The position numbers and the translations under genes are program-made. Shown piece by piece: positions 49,121 to 54,424 of a stretch of DNA of 64,000 bases (the stretch's first letter is position 1; every line of letters starts with the position of its first letter). The DNA is from an uncultured Dehalococcoidaceae bacterium. GTDB taxonomy: Bacteria; Chloroflexota; Dehalococcoidia; Dehalococcoidales; RBG-16-60-22. The stretch spans positions 45,355-109,354 of the forward strand of contig CAZTMR010000001.1 in NCBI GenBank assembly GCA_964615345.1, read 5' to 3'. The notes below the pieces were generated by a model, which worked only from the letters and a program-made list of their open reading frames with translations, was not told the DNA's origin and ran no database searches.

Positions 49121-50293
49121 TTACAGCAGTGAAGGTATATCCTTGGAAGTATCTTCGATAACTCTGAGCTTGGTCTCCGTCTCCTCCTGCCTTCTCTTGA
49201 ACTCCGGGATAAGCCCGGTCGATTTGATATAGTAGCCTCTCACCTTCTCCAGGTCGCTCAGCTCGGAAAGAATGACGGTAACATCCAGCGCGCCCCTTTC
49301 CCGGGGATAATCGCCGTTTCTAATCATCGCTTCAGGAGCAAGGTCCCTCATGTAGTCCCCCAGAGCCTTTGACAGGTCCATATTCATTTCTTTAGACGGC
49401 CCGGAAAGGAGGTAAAGTGCCCTGCGGGCGTCCACCGGGTTGCACTTCAGTGACAACTCGCTGATAGCCTCATCCATGGTCTGGATGCCTTTCAGCGTTT
49501 CATTTCCCTTCTTACGGAAATCACCGCGCTCGCGGGGGAACTTGAACAGGGGGATATCGGAACGGCCGTAACCGATAACCGTCCAGCCTACCAGCGTCTG
49601 GATGATATCCCCGGCGTCAAGTACTTTTGAGGCTATGTACTTGGACTTTTTCTCTTCACCGGCGCAGAGCATATTGTAGAAAGGCTCCGCAATCATGGCA
49701 TTAATCTTGGACAGATTGCCTTTTATCGATGAATCTTTGCGGACGAACCGCTGGTTATCTACCAGGAACACGGCATCGGCTATTGAATAGCATGACTTCA
49801 AACAGGTGGCCGTGTTGTACACGGTGCGGTCCTCTGTGGTCTCCTCATGCTCGAAAGGTAAAACTATGAGGTTATATACTGGCTTATCCGCGTAGCGCTC
49901 TTTGATTTGCTGTGTCATCACGGCTACGGACCCGGAACCGGTGCCGCCGGCGGCACTGGCGATAAGTAAAAAGGCGTCCGTTTCAAAAAATCTCTTTGTG
50001 GTGCGGATGGAATCAATCACCTTATCGGCGTCTTCTCTGGCTATCTCCGCCCCCAGCTCGTTTATTTTCCCCACGCCGTGCCCGCCGGTCTTGCGCCCGC
50101 CGATAAGGATACGGTGCTGGTACCCACGCTGTATGTTGTGTAACCCGCTCAGGTCGGCCGCATCAGTATTTACGGCGTACGCTCCGGTAATAATTTCTAT
50201 CCCACGACGGCTGCGTGCCATTTTGTTTAGCCTGGAAAACTCGTCGGCAATTCTTCCGCCGCACTGCCCAAAACCGACAACTACTAACTTCAT
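49121..50293 (-). CDS. tubulin/FtsZ-superfamily GTPase, CetZ-like core with an FtsZ-like DIPSLL C-terminal peptide (paralog A)
   Basis: 390 aa. T1 loop MKLVVVGFGQCGGRIADEF; GHGVGKINELGAEIARED; T4 signature AAGGTGSGS (residues ~114-122); PVYNLIVLP; FLVDN; T7-like VLDAGDII (~224-231); GDYPRE; C-terminal ..KDIPSLL. Confidence 0.85.
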   Translation of the reverse strand: MKLVVVGFGQCGGRIADEFSRLNKMARSRRGIEIITGAYAVNTDAADLSGLHNIQRGYQHRILIGGRKTGGHGVGKINELGAEIAREDADKVIDSIRTTKRFFETDAFLLIASAAGGTGSGSVAVMTQQIKERYADKPVYNLIVLPFEHEETTEDRTVYNTATCLKSCYSIADAVFLVDNQRFVRKDSSIKGNLSKINAMIAEPFYNMLCAGEEKKSKYIASKVLDAGDIIQTLVGWTVIGYGRSDIPLFKFPRERGDFRKKGNETLKGIQTMDEAISELSLKCNPVDARRALYLLSGPSKEMNMDLSKALGDYMRDLAPEAMIRNGDYPRERGALDVTVILSELSDLEKVRGYYIKSTGLIPEFKRRQEETETKLRVIEDTSKDIPSLL

Positions 50294-50321
50294 TTCTCAC
50301 CTCGGTAGCAGAGTTACGTTC

Positions 50322-50351
50322 ATTGTATGCATAGTACCGGACTATTGTCAA
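50322..50351 (-). promoter_or_regulatory. sigma-70-type promoter candidate for tubulin-like gene A
   Basis: Minus strand has TTGACA (50351-50346), an 18-nt spacer, then TACAAT (50327-50322). GAGGTGA SD lies before ATG 50293. Confidence 0.5.
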
Positions 50352-50377
50352 TCTTTTGTCATCACCCAAAAAAGTTA

Positions 50378-50406
50378 TTGAAAAACGGTTTACCCTATAT
50401 TAAAAT
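50378..50406 (+). promoter_or_regulatory. sigma-70-type promoter candidate for the coiled-coil genes
   Basis: TTGAAA at 50378-50383 and TAAAAT at 50401-50406 with a 17-nt spacer. AAGGGG SD lies before ATG 50427. Confidence 0.45.
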
Positions 50407-50426
50407 TAGGAAACTAAGGGGTAGCA

Positions 50427-52574
50427 ATGGCTAAAGAAACGTCCCGGGACTCCATTATCAATGCGGAAAACAATATCGACGCTTTTGAAAAAGCGGTTGC
50501 CGAGGCAGAAAAACTAAGCCAGGCCGCCAGAAGTGCCGCAGAGGCCTCTACCCGGGCTGCCCAGGAATCTATCAGCCGGGCGGAGGCGATCGGCAAAAAG
50601 GCGAAAAAAGCGGCTGAAAGCTCTGCTGAAGCGGCAAATCAAGCGGTTGAACGCGCCCGCCAGATCTGTAATGAAGCCAGAGTGGCGGCTGAGGAGTCTA
50701 TACGAAAGGCTGAGGAGGCCATAAAGCAGGCGGAGGAATCCGCCCGGGTACCCAAGGAAGCCGCCAGGGGGACCGCCAGAAAGTTCCGGGAAGCGATAGA
50801 GCGTGCTGAAGAGACGAGCCGGGAAGCAATGGAAGCGGCGGAAGCTTCTTTCCTCGCTTCACAGGAAGGGCTGAATCGGGTAGAGGAAATAAGTACTGGC
50901 GCTAAAGAACTGGCTGAATCATCATCCCGGGCGGTGGACGAAGAACTGAAAAAAGCCCAGGAAGCCAGCAGGCTGGCGCGGGAAGTAGCAGAAAGCTCCA
51001 TCAGAGAAGCCAGGCAGGCCTCGGCAAGGGCGGAAAAGGCGAGCCGGGAAGCCCGGGAAGCCGCCGCCGCCGCCGCCAGGGAAGCCCGGGAAGCCGCCAG
51101 CAAAGCGGAAAAGACCGGCCAGGCCACCAGAGAAAACGCGGAAACTTCAGCCAAGGCTACCCGTGAGGTAGCGGAAAAAGCCGAACAGCTCAGCCGGGAA
51201 GCCCGGGAGGTGGCAGAAACCTCTTTAAAGGCCTCTCAGGCTACCACGCAGCGGGTGGAAGAGATAAGCAAGGAAATCAAATCGGTCGCGGCAGCTTCCG
51301 CACAATCGAACCGGCAGGCCGTCAGCAAGATAGAAACATTGAATCGGGACACCAGGCTGGCAGCGGAAGAAGCCTCCAGAGTTGCCCGGGAAGCCGCCGC
51401 TGAATCGACCAGTGCATCACGGGAAGCCATCAGTAAAGTGGAGAGTATCGGCAGTGAAATCAAGACCATGGTCGAGTCAATGGTGAAATCTTTCGGGGAA
51501 GAGATAAGCCAGGTCGAAGCCAAAAGCCAGGAAACGAAAGAGACGGCGGAAGCATCGGTAAAAACGGCACAGGAAGTCTCCGAGGCATCTGTAATCGCTT
51601 CTCAAGAGGCCATAAGCCGGGTGGAAGAAATATGCCAGACCACGCTGCAGACCACCGGAGAATCGGCGAAGTCGGTACAGGAAGCCAGTGACGAAGCGAT
51701 AAAAACCTCCCGGGAAGCGGCGGAAACATCCGTCAGGACGTCTCATGAAGCCATCAGCCAGGCGGAAAAGATAAAGCTGGAATCCAGGGAAAGTGCGGAA
51801 AATCTGTCCCGGTCAGCCATGGAAGCGGTCCAGGGAGCGATAAAAGCGGCGAAAGAAGCCGCGGAAGCCGTTGCCCGGACCTCGCAAGAAGCCATTGAAC
51901 GGGCGGAAGAGATGAACCGGACGACACAGGAAACCGCTGAATCCTCCCGGAAAGCGGTGCGGGAGGCTACCAGACTGGCCATCAAGACCGCCCGGGAAGC
52001 GGCGGAGAACTCGGCAAAAAATTTCGCCGATGCCATAAGCCGGGCGGAAGCCATCGGCAGAGAAACCAGGGAAGCTACCGAGGCTTCGGCCAAAGCGGCC
52101 CGGGAAGCGGCTGAGTCCACGGTAAGGGCGGCTCAGGAAGCCACGGAGGCTGCCGCTCGCGTTGCCAGAGAAGCGGCGGCGGTATCGGTGAAAGCGTTCC
52201 AGGAAGCTATCAGCCGGGCGGAGGCTTCCGGTAAAATGGCGCGGGAAAACGCGGAAGCGTCTCTCAAAGCCTTTGAGAGAGCGGTAAACAAAGATGCGGA
52301 GATTAAAGAAGAGGCTTCCCAGATACTTGAGTTCACGGAGCCGGCGGCGGAAACCAGAGAAGACGCGGCGGAAGACTCGTTGAAGGCCTTTGAAGAGGCC
52401 ATAAACAAAGCTAAAGAGAGCAATGCCGCGGAAAAGAAAAAAGCCAGGCCCTCCAGAGGCAGGGAGAAAATAGAGGCCAGGCTGGATTTTCTCTCCCGTA
52501 TGTATGAGTCAAAGTCAAACGGCGGACCGGAAGAAGACACCGGGAACCAGGATGCTGAAAATGCCCGTAAATAA
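50427..52574 (+). CDS. 715-aa Ala/Glu/Ser/Arg-rich all-helical repeat protein (hendecad-based coiled-coil candidate, CC1)
   Basis: Uninterrupted 715-codon ORF with SD and promoter. There is no signal peptide or TM segment and almost no Pro, Gly or aromatic residues until the last ~45 residues. A recurring (Q/R)EAIS(R/Q)(A/V)E anchor motif is present. The opposite strand carries only fragmented Ala/Ser-rich ORFs. Confidence 0.75.
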   Translation: MAKETSRDSIINAENNIDAFEKAVAEAEKLSQAARSAAEASTRAAQESISRAEAIGKKAKKAAESSAEAANQAVERARQICNEARVAAEESIRKAEEAIKQAEESARVPKEAARGTARKFREAIERAEETSREAMEAAEASFLASQEGLNRVEEISTGAKELAESSSRAVDEELKKAQEASRLAREVAESSIREARQASARAEKASREAREAAAAAAREAREAASKAEKTGQATRENAETSAKATREVAEKAEQLSREAREVAETSLKASQATTQRVEEISKEIKSVAAASAQSNRQAVSKIETLNRDTRLAAEEASRVAREAAAESTSASREAISKVESIGSEIKTMVESMVKSFGEEISQVEAKSQETKETAEASVKTAQEVSEASVIASQEAISRVEEICQTTLQTTGESAKSVQEASDEAIKTSREAAETSVRTSHEAISQAEKIKLESRESAENLSRSAMEAVQGAIKAAKEAAEAVARTSQEAIERAEEMNRTTQETAESSRKAVREATRLAIKTAREAAENSAKNFADAISRAEAIGRETREATEASAKAAREAAESTVRAAQEATEAAARVAREAAAVSVKAFQEAISRAEASGKMARENAEASLKAFERAVNKDAEIKEEASQILEFTEPAAETREDAAEDSLKAFEEAINKAKESNAAEKKKARPSRGREKIEARLDFLSRMYESKSNGGPEEDTGNQDAENARK
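50559..52286 (+). repeat. degenerate in-frame tandem repeats (11-residue modules plus 14-residue spacers; best copies have a 47-aa / 141-bp period)
   Basis: Anchor-motif spacings counted by hand are 25, 36, 47, 47, 47 and 58 residues (14 + 11n) between residues ~249 and 595. The more degenerate N-terminal copies are spaced 32 and 43 residues (21 + 11n). Confidence 0.7.
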
Positions 52575-52647
52575 GGTATCATTGACCTTGAAACGGTCTT
52601 CAGATAAACACAGTAAATAATGCAGACAATCGTTTAGGAGGTAGTCG

Positions 52648-53178
52648 ATGGCCGAGCCGAAGGGAGCTAAAAAAGTCAGCGAAGAGCCTGTGGAGGAGAT
52701 TGTGGAAGAGACAACTGCGGCGCAGGAAGAAGCTCTGGAACCGCCGGAACCGGCGGTAGAAGAAGAAACTACGGACACAAGGCCGCTCGATGAAGTCCTG
52801 GGACAGGCGGAAAAAGCTTACGCCGCTTACATGGAAGCACAGCGCCAGGTAGCCAACGCGTACCGGGGAAACGAGCAACAGATAGCCCGGGCATACCGTC
52901 GGGCGGAGCAGCAGGCGGAAAGCGCCTGCGAGGCGAGCATCAACGAAGCCATAAAGGCCCGGGAAGAGACCATTAACCAGGCGCTGAAAGAACGCGATGA
53001 CGCTATCACCCAGGTGGAAAAGGCCTACCGGAAGACGAAAGAACAGGCGGAAAAAACCTGCGAAGCTGAAATTGATAAAGCCTGGAAAGCGAGAGAGCAC
53101 GCCGTCGAGCAGGCCTGGCAGCTGCGCGAGGAAACTCTCGAGCAGGCCTGGAACATCTACGCCAAGCTGTCAAGATAA
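52648..53178 (+). CDS. 176-aa protein: acidic Glu/Pro-rich N-terminus plus an uninterrupted hendecad coiled-coil (CC2)
   Basis: Strong SD (TAGGAGGT) 5 nt before the ATG. Residues 55-175 parse into 11 consecutive 11-mers. It lies 73 nt downstream of CC1 with no obvious terminator between them. Confidence 0.65.
   Translation: MAEPKGAKKVSEEPVEEIVEETTAAQEEALEPPEPAVEEETTDTRPLDEVLGQAEKAYAAYMEAQRQVANAYRGNEQQIARAYRRAEQQAESACEASINEAIKAREETINQALKERDDAITQVEKAYRKTKEQAEKTCEAEIDKAWKAREHAVEQAWQLREETLEQAWNIYAKLSR
52810..53172 (+). repeat. eleven consecutive 11-residue (33-bp) protein repeats
   Basis: EKAYAAYMEAQ/RQVANAYRGNE/QQIARAYRRAE/QQAESACEASI/NEAIKAREETI/NQALKERDDAI/TQVEKAYRKTK/EQAEKTCEAEI/DKAWKAREHAV/EQAWQLREETL/EQAWNIYAKLS. 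Confidence 0.7.
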
Positions 53179-53248: not shown

Positions 53249-54424
53249 CTATAATAGGGAAGGGATATCTTTAAGGGTAACTTCTATGCCGCGGGTCTGG
53301 CTCTCTATCCCTTCCTGTCTCTTCTTTAGAGTGGAGATAAGATTGATCGCCTTGGTGAAGTAACCCCGTATTTTGGCCACGTCACTGAGCTCGGAAAGAA
53401 TTACCGTAACCTCCAGAGCTCCCCCCTCCCGGGGATAATCGCCGCTCCTGATTACCGCTTCCGGGGTCAGGCTCTTCAGGTAGGTGCCCAGTTCCTTGAT
53501 CAGATCAACGTTCACTTCTTTGGCCGGCGCGGAAACCAGGTATAAAGCCCGCTTTGAGTCCACCGGGTTACACTTCAGGGAGAGCCCGCTTATCGCCTGG
53601 TCCATGGTCTGGGTCCCTTTCTGCGTTTCCGTGGCCTTGTTCCGGAAGTCCCGCGTCCGCTTGAAAAGCCCCCGGGTAAAGGAAAGGTTTGACCTGCCGT
53701 AGCCGATAGTCGTCCAGCCGGAAACGGTCTGGATAATGTCGCCGGCATCAAGTATCTTGGCGCCGATGTGCTTGTGCTTTTTCTCCTCCCCGGCGCAGAG
53801 CAAGTTATAAAAAGGCTCGGTAATGGTGGTGTTGATGCGGGAGAGATTGCTGCGTATGGGGGAATCTTTCATCACGTACCGCTGGTTGTCTACCAGAAAC
53901 ACCGCGTCCGCCACCAGATAAGAAGATTTAAGGCAGGTGGCCACGTTATACACCGTTCTTTCTTCGGTCGATTCTTCGTGTTCAAACGGAAGTACAATGA
54001 GATTGTATACCGGCTTGTCCACGTAGCGTTCTTTAATGTGCTGGGTGATTACCGGCACCGAACCGGACCCGGTGCCGCCGGCGGCGCCGGCAATGAGCAG
54101 GAAGGCGTCCGCTTCAGTAAAGCGGCGGCTCGTCCGGATAATCTCAATGACCTTGTCACCGTCTTCTTTGGCTATCTCCGCGCCCAACTCGTTTATCTTC
54201 CCCACGCCGTGACCGCCGGTCTTGCGCCCGCCAATCAGGATACGGTGTTGATAGTCCGGCCTTATGCCGGTCAGACCGCTCAGGTCGGCCACGTCTGTAT
54301 TTACGGCAAAAGCTCCGGCGATGATGTCAATCCCGCGCTGGCCGCGCGCTTTCCTATTCAACCGGGCAAACTCATCGGCGATTCTTCCGCCGCACTGCCC
54401 GAAACCAACTACCACAATTTTCAT
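53249..54424 (-). CDS. tubulin/FtsZ-superfamily GTPase, CetZ-like core with an FtsZ-like DIPSLL C-terminal peptide (paralog B)
   Basis: 391 aa, colinear with paralog A. MKIVVVGFGQCGGRIADEF; GHGVGKINELGAEIAKED; GAAGGTGSGS; PVYNLIVLP; FLVDN; ILDAGDII; GDYPRE; ..KDIPSLL. Confidence 0.85.
   Translation of the reverse strand: MKIVVVGFGQCGGRIADEFARLNRKARGQRGIDIIAGAFAVNTDVADLSGLTGIRPDYQHRILIGGRKTGGHGVGKINELGAEIAKEDGDKVIEIIRTSRRFTEADAFLLIAGAAGGTGSGSVPVITQHIKERYVDKPVYNLIVLPFEHEESTEERTVYNVATCLKSSYLVADAVFLVDNQRYVMKDSPIRSNLSRINTTITEPFYNLLCAGEEKKHKHIGAKILDAGDIIQTVSGWTTIGYGRSNLSFTRGLFKRTRDFRNKATETQKGTQTMDQAISGLSLKCNPVDSKRALYLVSAPAKEVNVDLIKELGTYLKSLTPEAVIRSGDYPREGGALEVTVILSELSDVAKIRGYFTKAINLISTLKKRQEGIESQTRGIEVTLKDIPSLL

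Follow-up and report, generated by a model that had tools for sequence, protein, structure and literature searches.

CC2, a 176-residue protein encoded on the forward strand at 52648..53178 of a 64,000-nucleotide stretch of DNA from an uncultured Dehalococcoidaceae bacterium (contig CAZTMR010000001.1; hereafter the window), is probably an alanine-cored, likely dimeric rod of fixed length, approximately 19 nm, that serves as a strut or adaptor in a tubulin/coiled-coil cytoskeleton of Dehalococcoidia. Because its gene adjoins CetZ-like tubulin genes in Dehalococcoidia, CC2 probably belongs to a bacterial cytoskeleton that has not been described before. The gene (176 codons plus stop) was recognized from the list of open reading frames (ORFs), the ratio of nonsynonymous to synonymous substitution rates (dN/dS), and 69 orthologues in Dehalococcoidia genomes. 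All coordinates given here are window positions, and CC2 residue numbers refer to the 176-residue ORF.

The rod has a clear periodicity. Residues 55–175 (52810..53172, + strand) split exactly into the eleven uninterrupted 11-residue repeats (hendecads) listed in the initial annotation, as judged by periodicity, phase, and the family profile. The power spectrum of Kyte–Doolittle hydrophobicity over these residues shows a single sharp peak, with a value of 150 at a period of 3.667 residues versus 5.7 at 3.5, and 0 of 2000 shuffled sequences reached this peak. The 11/3 phase stays between approximately −31 and +8 degrees in all 33-residue windows across residues 57–166, indicating that the rod contains neither a stutter nor a stammer. 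The first such window (residues 46–78) has an offset phase, and its power at 3.5 is as high as that at 3.67, which marks the cap PLDEVLGQA as heptad-like. The 11-residue register reaches back to L47, V50, and A54 and, with a helix predicted from residue 46, gives approximately 12 hendecads. Averaging hydrophobicity over 70 species yielded a power of 118 at 3.667 versus 5.3 at 3.5, and the per-column entropy of the same alignment a power of 7.7 versus 1.1. The 11/3 recurrence that characterizes hendecad coiled coils is thus present in both the window sequence and the 70-species profile. The 44-residue super-repeat described earlier is also real, with a self-identity of 0.30 at lag 44 that equals the value at lag 11.

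We then mapped the hydrophobic stripe, counting hendecad positions with E55 as position 1. On an 11/3 helical wheel the apolar arc is six positions wide and runs 6-10-3-7-11-4. All 11 repeats have Ala (8 repeats), Val, or Ile at position 3, which shows the lowest entropy of any position (0.43 bits, 70 species). Positions 6 and 10 are mostly Ala and form part of the stripe, and position 4 holds Trp, Leu, Tyr, or Ala. Next in conservation after position 3 comes position 7 (0.59 bits, 70 species). Its successive residues in the window CC2 are Y,Y,Y,[C,R,R,Y],[C,R,R,Y]; in the family this position is Tyr in repeats 1–3, Tyr or Cys in repeat 4, an invariant Arg in repeats 5 and 6, Tyr or Phe in repeat 7, Cys or Tyr in repeat 8, again an invariant Arg in repeats 9 and 10, and Tyr in repeat 11. 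Position 11 is Ile, Val, or Leu in repeats 4–6 and 8–10 and polar in repeats 1–3 and 7. The initial annotation had placed small or hydrophobic residues at positions 3, 4, 7, and 11 and equated these positions with an a/d/e/h core. They do form a valid contiguous arc, but the assignment is incomplete: Ala at positions 6 and 10 also lies in the stripe, four repeats have an invariant Arg at position 7, and position 11 is not uniformly apolar. An alternative register with a = 7, d = 10, e = 11, and h = 3 has the two most conserved positions at its center. Both Cys residues, previously called conserved, match each other only within the super-repeat. Among the 70 species, the C94 column holds Tyr in 38, Cys in 25, His in 3, Phe in 2, and Ala in 1, and the C138 column holds Cys in 35, Tyr in 16, Ser in 6, Phe in 5, and Ala in 5. 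Since other repeats have Tyr at this position, the two Cys are core-position variants rather than a conserved disulfide or metal site.

The nature of the stripe bears on the oligomeric state. In hendecad coiled coils one residue per repeat faces the bundle axis, and a dimer requires this residue to be Ala, a higher oligomer forming otherwise (Martinez-Goikoetxea and Lupas, PMC9858780). At position 3, CC2 keeps an invariant small residue, in agreement with this requirement. The same study describes Scy and FilP as dimeric hendecad rods with Ala-rich cores, knobs-to-knobs packing, and almost no supercoiling, and considers long hendecad coiled coils a largely unexplored class (PMC9858780). CC2 shares with Scy and FilP an Ala at the knobs-to-knobs position and on that ground would most likely be a dimer.

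AlphaFold2, run on a 14-sequence alignment, predicts one unbroken helix spanning residues 46–175 with predicted local distance difference test (pLDDT) scores above 90. The helicity on which the initial annotation had staked its reading is therefore recovered as a single helix of ~130 residues, and the uninterrupted α-helix expected of the hendecad class is present by prediction. At 1.5 Å per residue, 130 residues correspond to a predicted rod of ~19 nm. Residues 1–42 score below 50, in keeping with the disordered, acidic, Pro-containing head proposed earlier: the arm formed by residues 13–45 (52684..52782, + strand), delimited by these scores and the alignment, carries a net charge of −12. It is preceded by a basic N-terminal tip (residues 1–12; 52648..52683, + strand) that shows the semiconserved motif M-x-x-P-K-x-x-x-K-K in the alignments and a median charge of +2 in 70 species. 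Across these species the whole head, counted up to P46, varies from 28 to 62 residues; its charge past the first 12 residues is consistently negative (median −6) in a variable sequence, and it has the highest entropy in CC2 (2.16 bits).

Conservation along the helix is concentrated at its two ends. The N-terminal third (residues 46–90; 52783..52917, + strand) has a mean entropy of 0.70 bits and 13/45 near-invariant columns, including L47, E49, A54, A57, Y58, A60, A64, V68, Y72, N75, and E76, with the consensus PLDEVLGQAEKAYAAYMEA.RQVA.AY..NE.Q.A.AY.RAEQQA. The C-terminal end (residues 154–176; 53107..53175, + strand) has a mean entropy of 0.89 bits, the consensus ..AW..R.ET.EQAW.IY.K..R, and 9/23 near-invariant columns (A156, R160, T163, Q166, A167, W168, I170, Y171, and K173). 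Between them, the rod middle (residues 91–153; 52918..53106, + strand) retains the 11/3 pattern at a mean entropy of 1.78 bits and is variable except for periodic Ala and Arg, of which Arg105, Arg116, and Arg149 are invariant. The distance between the N- and C-terminal anchors is 122 residues in 72 and 111 residues in 14 of 86 family members, with no other value observed. The sole indel tolerated in the helix is thus one hendecad (11 residues, 33 nt), located in the rod middle and seen as a deletion in one clade. As this indel amounts to exactly three helical turns, the azimuthal phase between the conserved ends is preserved.

Comparative data establish that CC2 is a real conserved gene under strong purifying selection. 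In the helical part, comparison with the two closest relatives gave dN/dS values of 0.06–0.07, and third codon positions of the + frame hold 58–61 of the ~90 nucleotide differences. A Shine–Dalgarno sequence, AGGAGG (52636..52641, + strand), lies 6 nt before the CC2 ATG; neither GGAGGTA nor the ATG varies among six species, and the remainder of the spacer separating CC2 from CC1, the coiled-coil gene upstream, is not conserved. When 1.84 billion cluster representatives were searched with a profile, 179 clusters (defined at 50% identity) matched CC2 at E ≤ 0.001, 101 of them at E ≤ 1e-10. A word-indexed protein search recovered 4 relatives with the single sequence and 18 with a profile, as low-complexity candidates saturate its pre-filter. 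The family set was accordingly built from the exhaustive profile search together with a genome scan seeded with the neighboring tubulins, whose loci contain 69 further full-length orthologues, or 70 with the window CC2. An exact-sequence look-up of CC2 returned no record, and its relatives carry only "hypothetical" labels in all sources. This lack of annotation or family, together with a 166-residue antisense ORF (52600-53100) that overlaps CC2, could be taken to mean that CC2 is a chance ORF or a shadow of the antisense frame. We give this idea essentially no credence, and it is already refuted by the substitution pattern, the invariant start codon and Shine–Dalgarno sequence, the matching clusters, and the restriction of indels to 33-nt units. 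Given the coding evidence for CC2, it is the antisense ORF that is the shadow.

We next considered the genomic setting. The tubulin-seeded scan yielded 77 loci, nearly all labeled Dehalococcoidia, Dehalococcoidales, or Chloroflexota, of which 70 were informative in that they contain tubB, the nearer tubulin gene, and enough downstream sequence. CC2 is convergent to tubB in 69/70 of these, 38–172 nt past the tubB stop codon. The full cassette, with tubB and CC2 convergent, CC1 co-directional with and upstream of CC2, and the second tubulin gene tubA divergent from CC1, occurs in 50 loci. In 9 further loci the contig ends after CC1, and 5 loci have tubB, CC2, and CC1 with no tubA nearby; the CC2 proteins of these 5 are among those with the 11-residue deletion. 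Conservation beside CC1, by which the initial annotation proposed to judge its reading, is extensive, the two genes being adjacent on the same strand in 64/69 CC2-bearing loci. The cassette lies between two groups of housekeeping genes, ligA-pth-eno-gap and dnaX-ybaB-recR. One Dehalococcoidia lineage (L072, 5998-7176) retains the eno-gap ... dnaX-recR synteny, but its only tubulin gene there is tubA-like, and tubB, CC1, and CC2 are all missing; by this joint absence the three genes behave as one unit. They seem to have been gained or lost as a block.

A few loci depart from the common arrangement. In the clade with the 11-residue deletion (L068, L069, L070, L073, L075, L080, and L081), tubA is missing beside CC1 wherever the contig is long enough, and in L068 an aldehyde-oxidoreductase-like gene follows CC1 in its place. 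A contig binned as Gemmatimonadales (L016) encodes a tubulin 83% identical to tubB, followed by CC2 and CC1, and ends before tubA; the Dehalococcoidia-type order tubB-CC2-CC1 on this contig points to mis-binning. Another, binned as Syntrophaceae (L040), carries a tubulin 72% identical to tubB, alone and without CC2.

CC1 (50427..52574, + strand) is a 715-residue Ala/Glu/Ser-rich repeat protein, identified from the ORF list and its self-identity. Its top self-identity lags are 25, 75, 36, and 50, indicating that it is built of 25-residue repeats (25/7 = 3.57), and its dominant period is 3.58. The earlier suggestion that CC2 shares the periodicity of CC1 therefore does not hold, since CC2 consists of hendecads with a period of 3.667. 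No homology between the two proteins was detectable (BLASTP E = 0.19). CC1 orthologues vary in length from 640 to 911 residues, in contrast to the fixed or quantized length of CC2. The CC1 N-terminus is conserved among orthologues, as is a C-terminal amphipathic motif, KIEARLEFLARMYE (about nt 52461-52505), that looks like a membrane-targeting or partner-binding helix.

At the CC1–CC2 junction, the 73-nt gap, the AGGAGG sequence, and the lack of a terminator-like site in the gap were all described correctly before. No terminator or structured RNA stood out in the CC2–tubB and CC1–CC2 gaps (fold z-scores of 0.56, 0.93, and −0.90), and the latter gap contains only a weak 9/12 promoter-like match. 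Co-transcription of CC1 and CC2 is plausible on this sequence evidence. Just past the CC1 stop codon lies a GACC...GGTC inverted repeat (52584-52602), present in the two closest relatives (L006 and L007) and absent from more distant ones; its fold is not significant, and it may act as a weak attenuator between the two genes. Upstream, the divergent region between tubA and CC1 (50294-50426, 133 nt) contains back-to-back promoter-like sites, TTGAAA-17-TAAAAT for CC1 (50378..50406, + strand) and one for tubA (50351-50322, − strand), of which one matches the consensus at 11/12 positions and the other at 10/12; both are called from that match only. Another promoter-like site, with an 11/12 match, lies upstream of tubB (54482-54453).

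The tight association of the two coiled-coil genes allows a different account, in which CC2 is an obligate partner of CC1 that caps, bundles, or nucleates the CC1 rod as a hetero-coiled coil, and the tubulins are linked indirectly or not at all. The genes are co-directional and adjacent in 64 loci, with a conserved Shine–Dalgarno sequence and no terminator-like site between them. In a distant lineage, moreover, locus L083 keeps a pair of CC1-like (25-residue repeats) and CC2-like genes in another genomic place, with no tubulin in the 200 nt left on the contig. We nonetheless regard this account as rather unlikely. With periods of 3.667 and 3.58, CC2 and CC1 would lose their common phase along an extended in-register hetero-coiled coil, and the two proteins lack sequence similarity. 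Locus L022 has tubB and CC2 without CC1, and the adjacency of tubB and CC2 (69/70) is at least as tight as that of CC1 and CC2.

The tubulin genes are both on the − strand. tubB (53249..54424), convergent with CC2, encodes a CetZ-like GTPase of the tubulin/FtsZ family with matches to Pfam Tubulin (1.3e-31) and CetZ_C (1.2e-20), and tubA (49121..50293), divergent from CC1, encodes a second CetZ-like paralogue 73% identical to tubB. Both proteins match PF00091 (110 bits) and PF21011 (57–74 bits) above the cut-offs and so display the CetZ domain architecture. Their best matches in the PDB are 4b46 (E = 3.1e-45), 4b45, and 3zid, which we take to be Haloferax volcanii CetZ1, CetZ2, and a Methanosaeta CetZ, respectively; 4b46 and 4b45 are deposited under the name "cell division protein FtsZ". 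Orthologues are 70–91% identical across the 77 loci, and at least 5729 tubulin relatives were found at E ≤ 1e-10 in a protein search. The distribution differs from that of euryarchaeal CetZ in that all 77 loci lie in Chloroflexota/Dehalococcoidia assemblies, bar the two otherwise-labeled bins. An AlphaFold2 model of tubB, made from an alignment of sequences at least 73% identical, has a mean pLDDT of 44.7. The C-terminal residues of both paralogues are invariably KDIPSLL in every aligned species, and ~30 residues with a heptad pattern come before this tail, beyond the CetZ_C domain. The tail resembles the DIPxFL partner-binding peptide at the C-terminus of FtsZ, and it could itself be a partner-binding peptide.

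CetZ-like proteins of Dehalococcoidia have been listed and left uncharacterized, and unrelated, uncharacterized coiled-coil genes occur near archaeal tubulin-like genes; the CC2 cassette is not described there (Santana-Molina et al., PMC9871819). In D. mccartyi BTF08, proteomics detected canonical FtsZ (btf_0595), a GTPase of the tubulin/FtsZ family (btf_0551), and, encoded near the latter, an abundant hypothetical protein (btf_0548) (Kruse et al., PMC8163811). This last protein may be an orthologue of CC1 or CC2. Our literature search found no paper on CC2 itself.

We compared CC2 with known families and systems. No family in Pfam, NCBIfam, PADLOC, or PHROG scored above threshold. The search of the PDB gave no relative; the best matches, with E values of 0.18 or higher, were coiled coils of designed or viral origin. 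Several sub-threshold profile matches were rejected as coiled-coil or compositional noise, namely TIGR04358 XXXCH (19.3 bits versus a cut-off of 40), F0F1 subunit B′, DUF6658 (15–17.5 bits versus 27), Sds3, Cor1, LEA_4, and LeoBC (15.9 bits), and the match to the tape-measure family phrog_1533 (19 bits) was likewise at the level of composition. Among coiled-coil accessory proteins of the FtsZ ring, profiles of ZapA, ZapB, EzrA, and SepF in Pfam and NCBIfam did not match CC2. Neither CC2 nor 36 orthologues matched Pfam DivIVA, and a DivIVA-like head was also rejected by inspection: PLDEV recalls DxxEVD but differs from it in spacing and has no G-Y, and the helix starts as RPLDEVLGQ without a G-Y-D loop. 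A tropomyosin-like commensurability did not hold either, as the 44-residue super-repeat (~66 Å) does not match the tubulin/FtsZ subunit (~43 Å).

By construction, and not by homology, the closest kind of protein is represented by Scy and FilP, which are likewise hendecad rods associated with a bacterial cytoskeleton and built around an Ala-rich core. CC2 differs in that no sequence relationship to them was found; in having no DivIVA-like RGYDxxEVD head and no heptad start; in the fixed length of its ~130 helical residues, compared with hundreds to more than 1000; and in being linked to tubulin in Chloroflexota, whereas Scy and FilP belong to Actinobacteria. CC2 resembles ZapB and ZapA (FtsZ), TubY (TubZ), and BtubC (BtubAB) as a small protein that acts on a tubulin-family polymer or is encoded together with one, and ZapB is essentially one coiled-coil helix. 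CC2 shows no homology to any of these and gave no Pfam or NCBIfam match to their families; it has hendecads instead of heptads and neighbors that are CetZ-like rather than FtsZ, TubZ, or Btub. The archaeal CetZ proteins share the Tubulin plus CetZ_C architecture of tubA and tubB, but the genes studied here are bacterial, comprise two paralogues flanking two coiled-coil genes, and encode an FtsZ-like DIPSLL tail. We know of no CC2-like partner described for archaeal CetZ. Phage tail tape-measure proteins, whose length in residues is their functional variable, offer a parallel in their long helix, 11-residue spacing of aromatic residues, and functional length, the length of CC2 being quantized by 11; the CC2 locus, however, lacks any phage context. 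The crenactin/arcadin ("arcade") cluster of Thermoproteales, a prokaryotic cytomotive filament system whose accessory genes are of unknown function, resembles the cassette in that a filament gene is clustered with lineage-specific, partly coiled-coil accessory genes; it is actin-based and archaeal and has no sequence relationship to CC2.

An 11-residue period with a straight, wide apolar arc is also used by helices that lie on surfaces. The 11/3 helix of CC2 might accordingly be an amphipathic membrane- or lipid-binding helix of the apolipoprotein, α-synuclein, perilipin, or LEA type that tethers filaments to the membrane. Its apolar arc covers ~200 degrees with the appropriate period, and the stripe is enriched in Trp, Tyr, and Arg. 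Membership in the lipid-binding 11-mer families (LEA_4, apolipoprotein, and synuclein) was not found, the nearest approach being a weak LEA_4 match in 1/36 members at E = 0.006, below the cut-off. The face consists mostly of Ala, with a mean hydrophobicity of only 0.09 (Fauchère–Pliska), and the helix has a median net charge of −2 (range −7 to +1), which together with the strongly acidic head would be unfavorable on anionic bacterial membranes. The near-invariant residues at both ends point to protein–protein specificity instead, and the candidate membrane-targeting motif of the cassette sits on CC1, not on CC2. We therefore consider membrane tethering by CC2 improbable.

Two CC2-like helices were found away from tubulins. 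P0148 (L087 1050-2339) is a 429-residue protein with a DUF4062-PAS architecture followed by a C-terminal CC2-like helix of the type shorter by one hendecad, from which it follows that the CC2 helix also occurs as a fused module; its gene adjoins a selD-like gene on a contig with no tubulin. In P0127 (L085 250-810), a CC2-like helix is followed by an additional tail at the C-terminus (…DPVLAQLWDNLDDNIYDSL), and the P0127 gene overlaps the start of a PemK-family toxin gene (785-1144), at the position expected for an antitoxin. Such occurrences would suit a reading of the CC2 helix as a generic oligomerization module whose tubB neighborhood is a frozen accident of a conserved housekeeping region, and the cassette does lie within the very stable ligA-pth-eno-gap / dnaX-ybaB-recR region. 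However, tubB, CC2, and CC1 are gained or lost as a group against the background of the flanking housekeeping genes (L072), conservation of the helix ends goes far beyond the needs of simple oligomerization, and the rod length is quantized. These features make a frozen accident very improbable.

We return to CC2 as a strut or adaptor of the tubulin cassette and to how it would work. The 11/3 periodicity would keep the stripe straight along the whole rod, and association of the rod with itself along this stripe would produce a nearly unsupercoiled coiled coil. The conserved rod ends would be specific binding or docking sites separated by a variable spacer, and since the spacer changes only by whole hendecads, the ends always keep the same azimuthal phase. 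Such a rod could act as a fixed-length strut or adaptor that binds the tubulins, CC1, or both, so that CC2 with tubB and CC1, and usually tubA, would form one module, presumably of a non-FtsZ cytoskeleton.

Several points weigh against this proposal. The four invariant Arg on the stripe would be awkward for an in-register parallel homodimer, and because of them the rod might instead pair along the stripe with a different protein or with an antiparallel copy of itself. By our own reasoning, an antiparallel dimer with position 7 facing position 7 would contain mostly Tyr/Phe–Arg layers (Y72–R160, Y83–R149, and R105–Y/F127), a pairing that would also fit the clade with the 11-residue deletion. 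Covariation analysis (mutual information with average product correction) of parallel versus antiparallel arrangements gave no pattern when deletion columns were left out, at an effective number of sequences of ~32. Coiled-coil sequences typically receive high pLDDT when modeled as a lone long helix, and such scores are no proof of oligomerization. The locus without CC1 (L022) and the CC1-like/CC2-like pair without an adjoining tubulin (L083) indicate that the module is separable, and P0148 and P0127 suggest that the CC2 helix may be a general oligomerization module.

Dehalococcoidia are known for wall-less, disc-shaped cells. More tentatively, as a possibility we would not rank as likely, CC2, CC1, and the two CetZ-like tubulins might constitute a peptidoglycan-independent cortical cytoskeleton that sets cell shape in Dehalococcoidia, with CC2 as a strut of ~19 nm that spaces or cross-links the tubulin filaments with respect to a CC1 lattice. 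To our knowledge, CetZ-type tubulins are archaeal cell-shape proteins without defined partners. Were this picture correct, the cassette would provide the first set of accessory proteins for a CetZ-type tubulin and an analogue of the spacers associated with eukaryotic microtubules.

CC2 is an unannotated protein family, and the cassette is more interesting than CC2 alone: a tubulin pair is locked to two lineage-specific coiled-coil genes without a database name, in an environmentally important class of bacteria in which canonical FtsZ is also present. With 176 residues, one helix, and sharply defined conserved ends, CC2 is a small and experimentally tractable component. If it binds the tubulins or CC1, CC2 would offer a direct handle on the organization of a bacterial non-FtsZ tubulin cytoskeleton. 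It would also let a long coiled coil made purely of hendecads be studied in a clean natural example.

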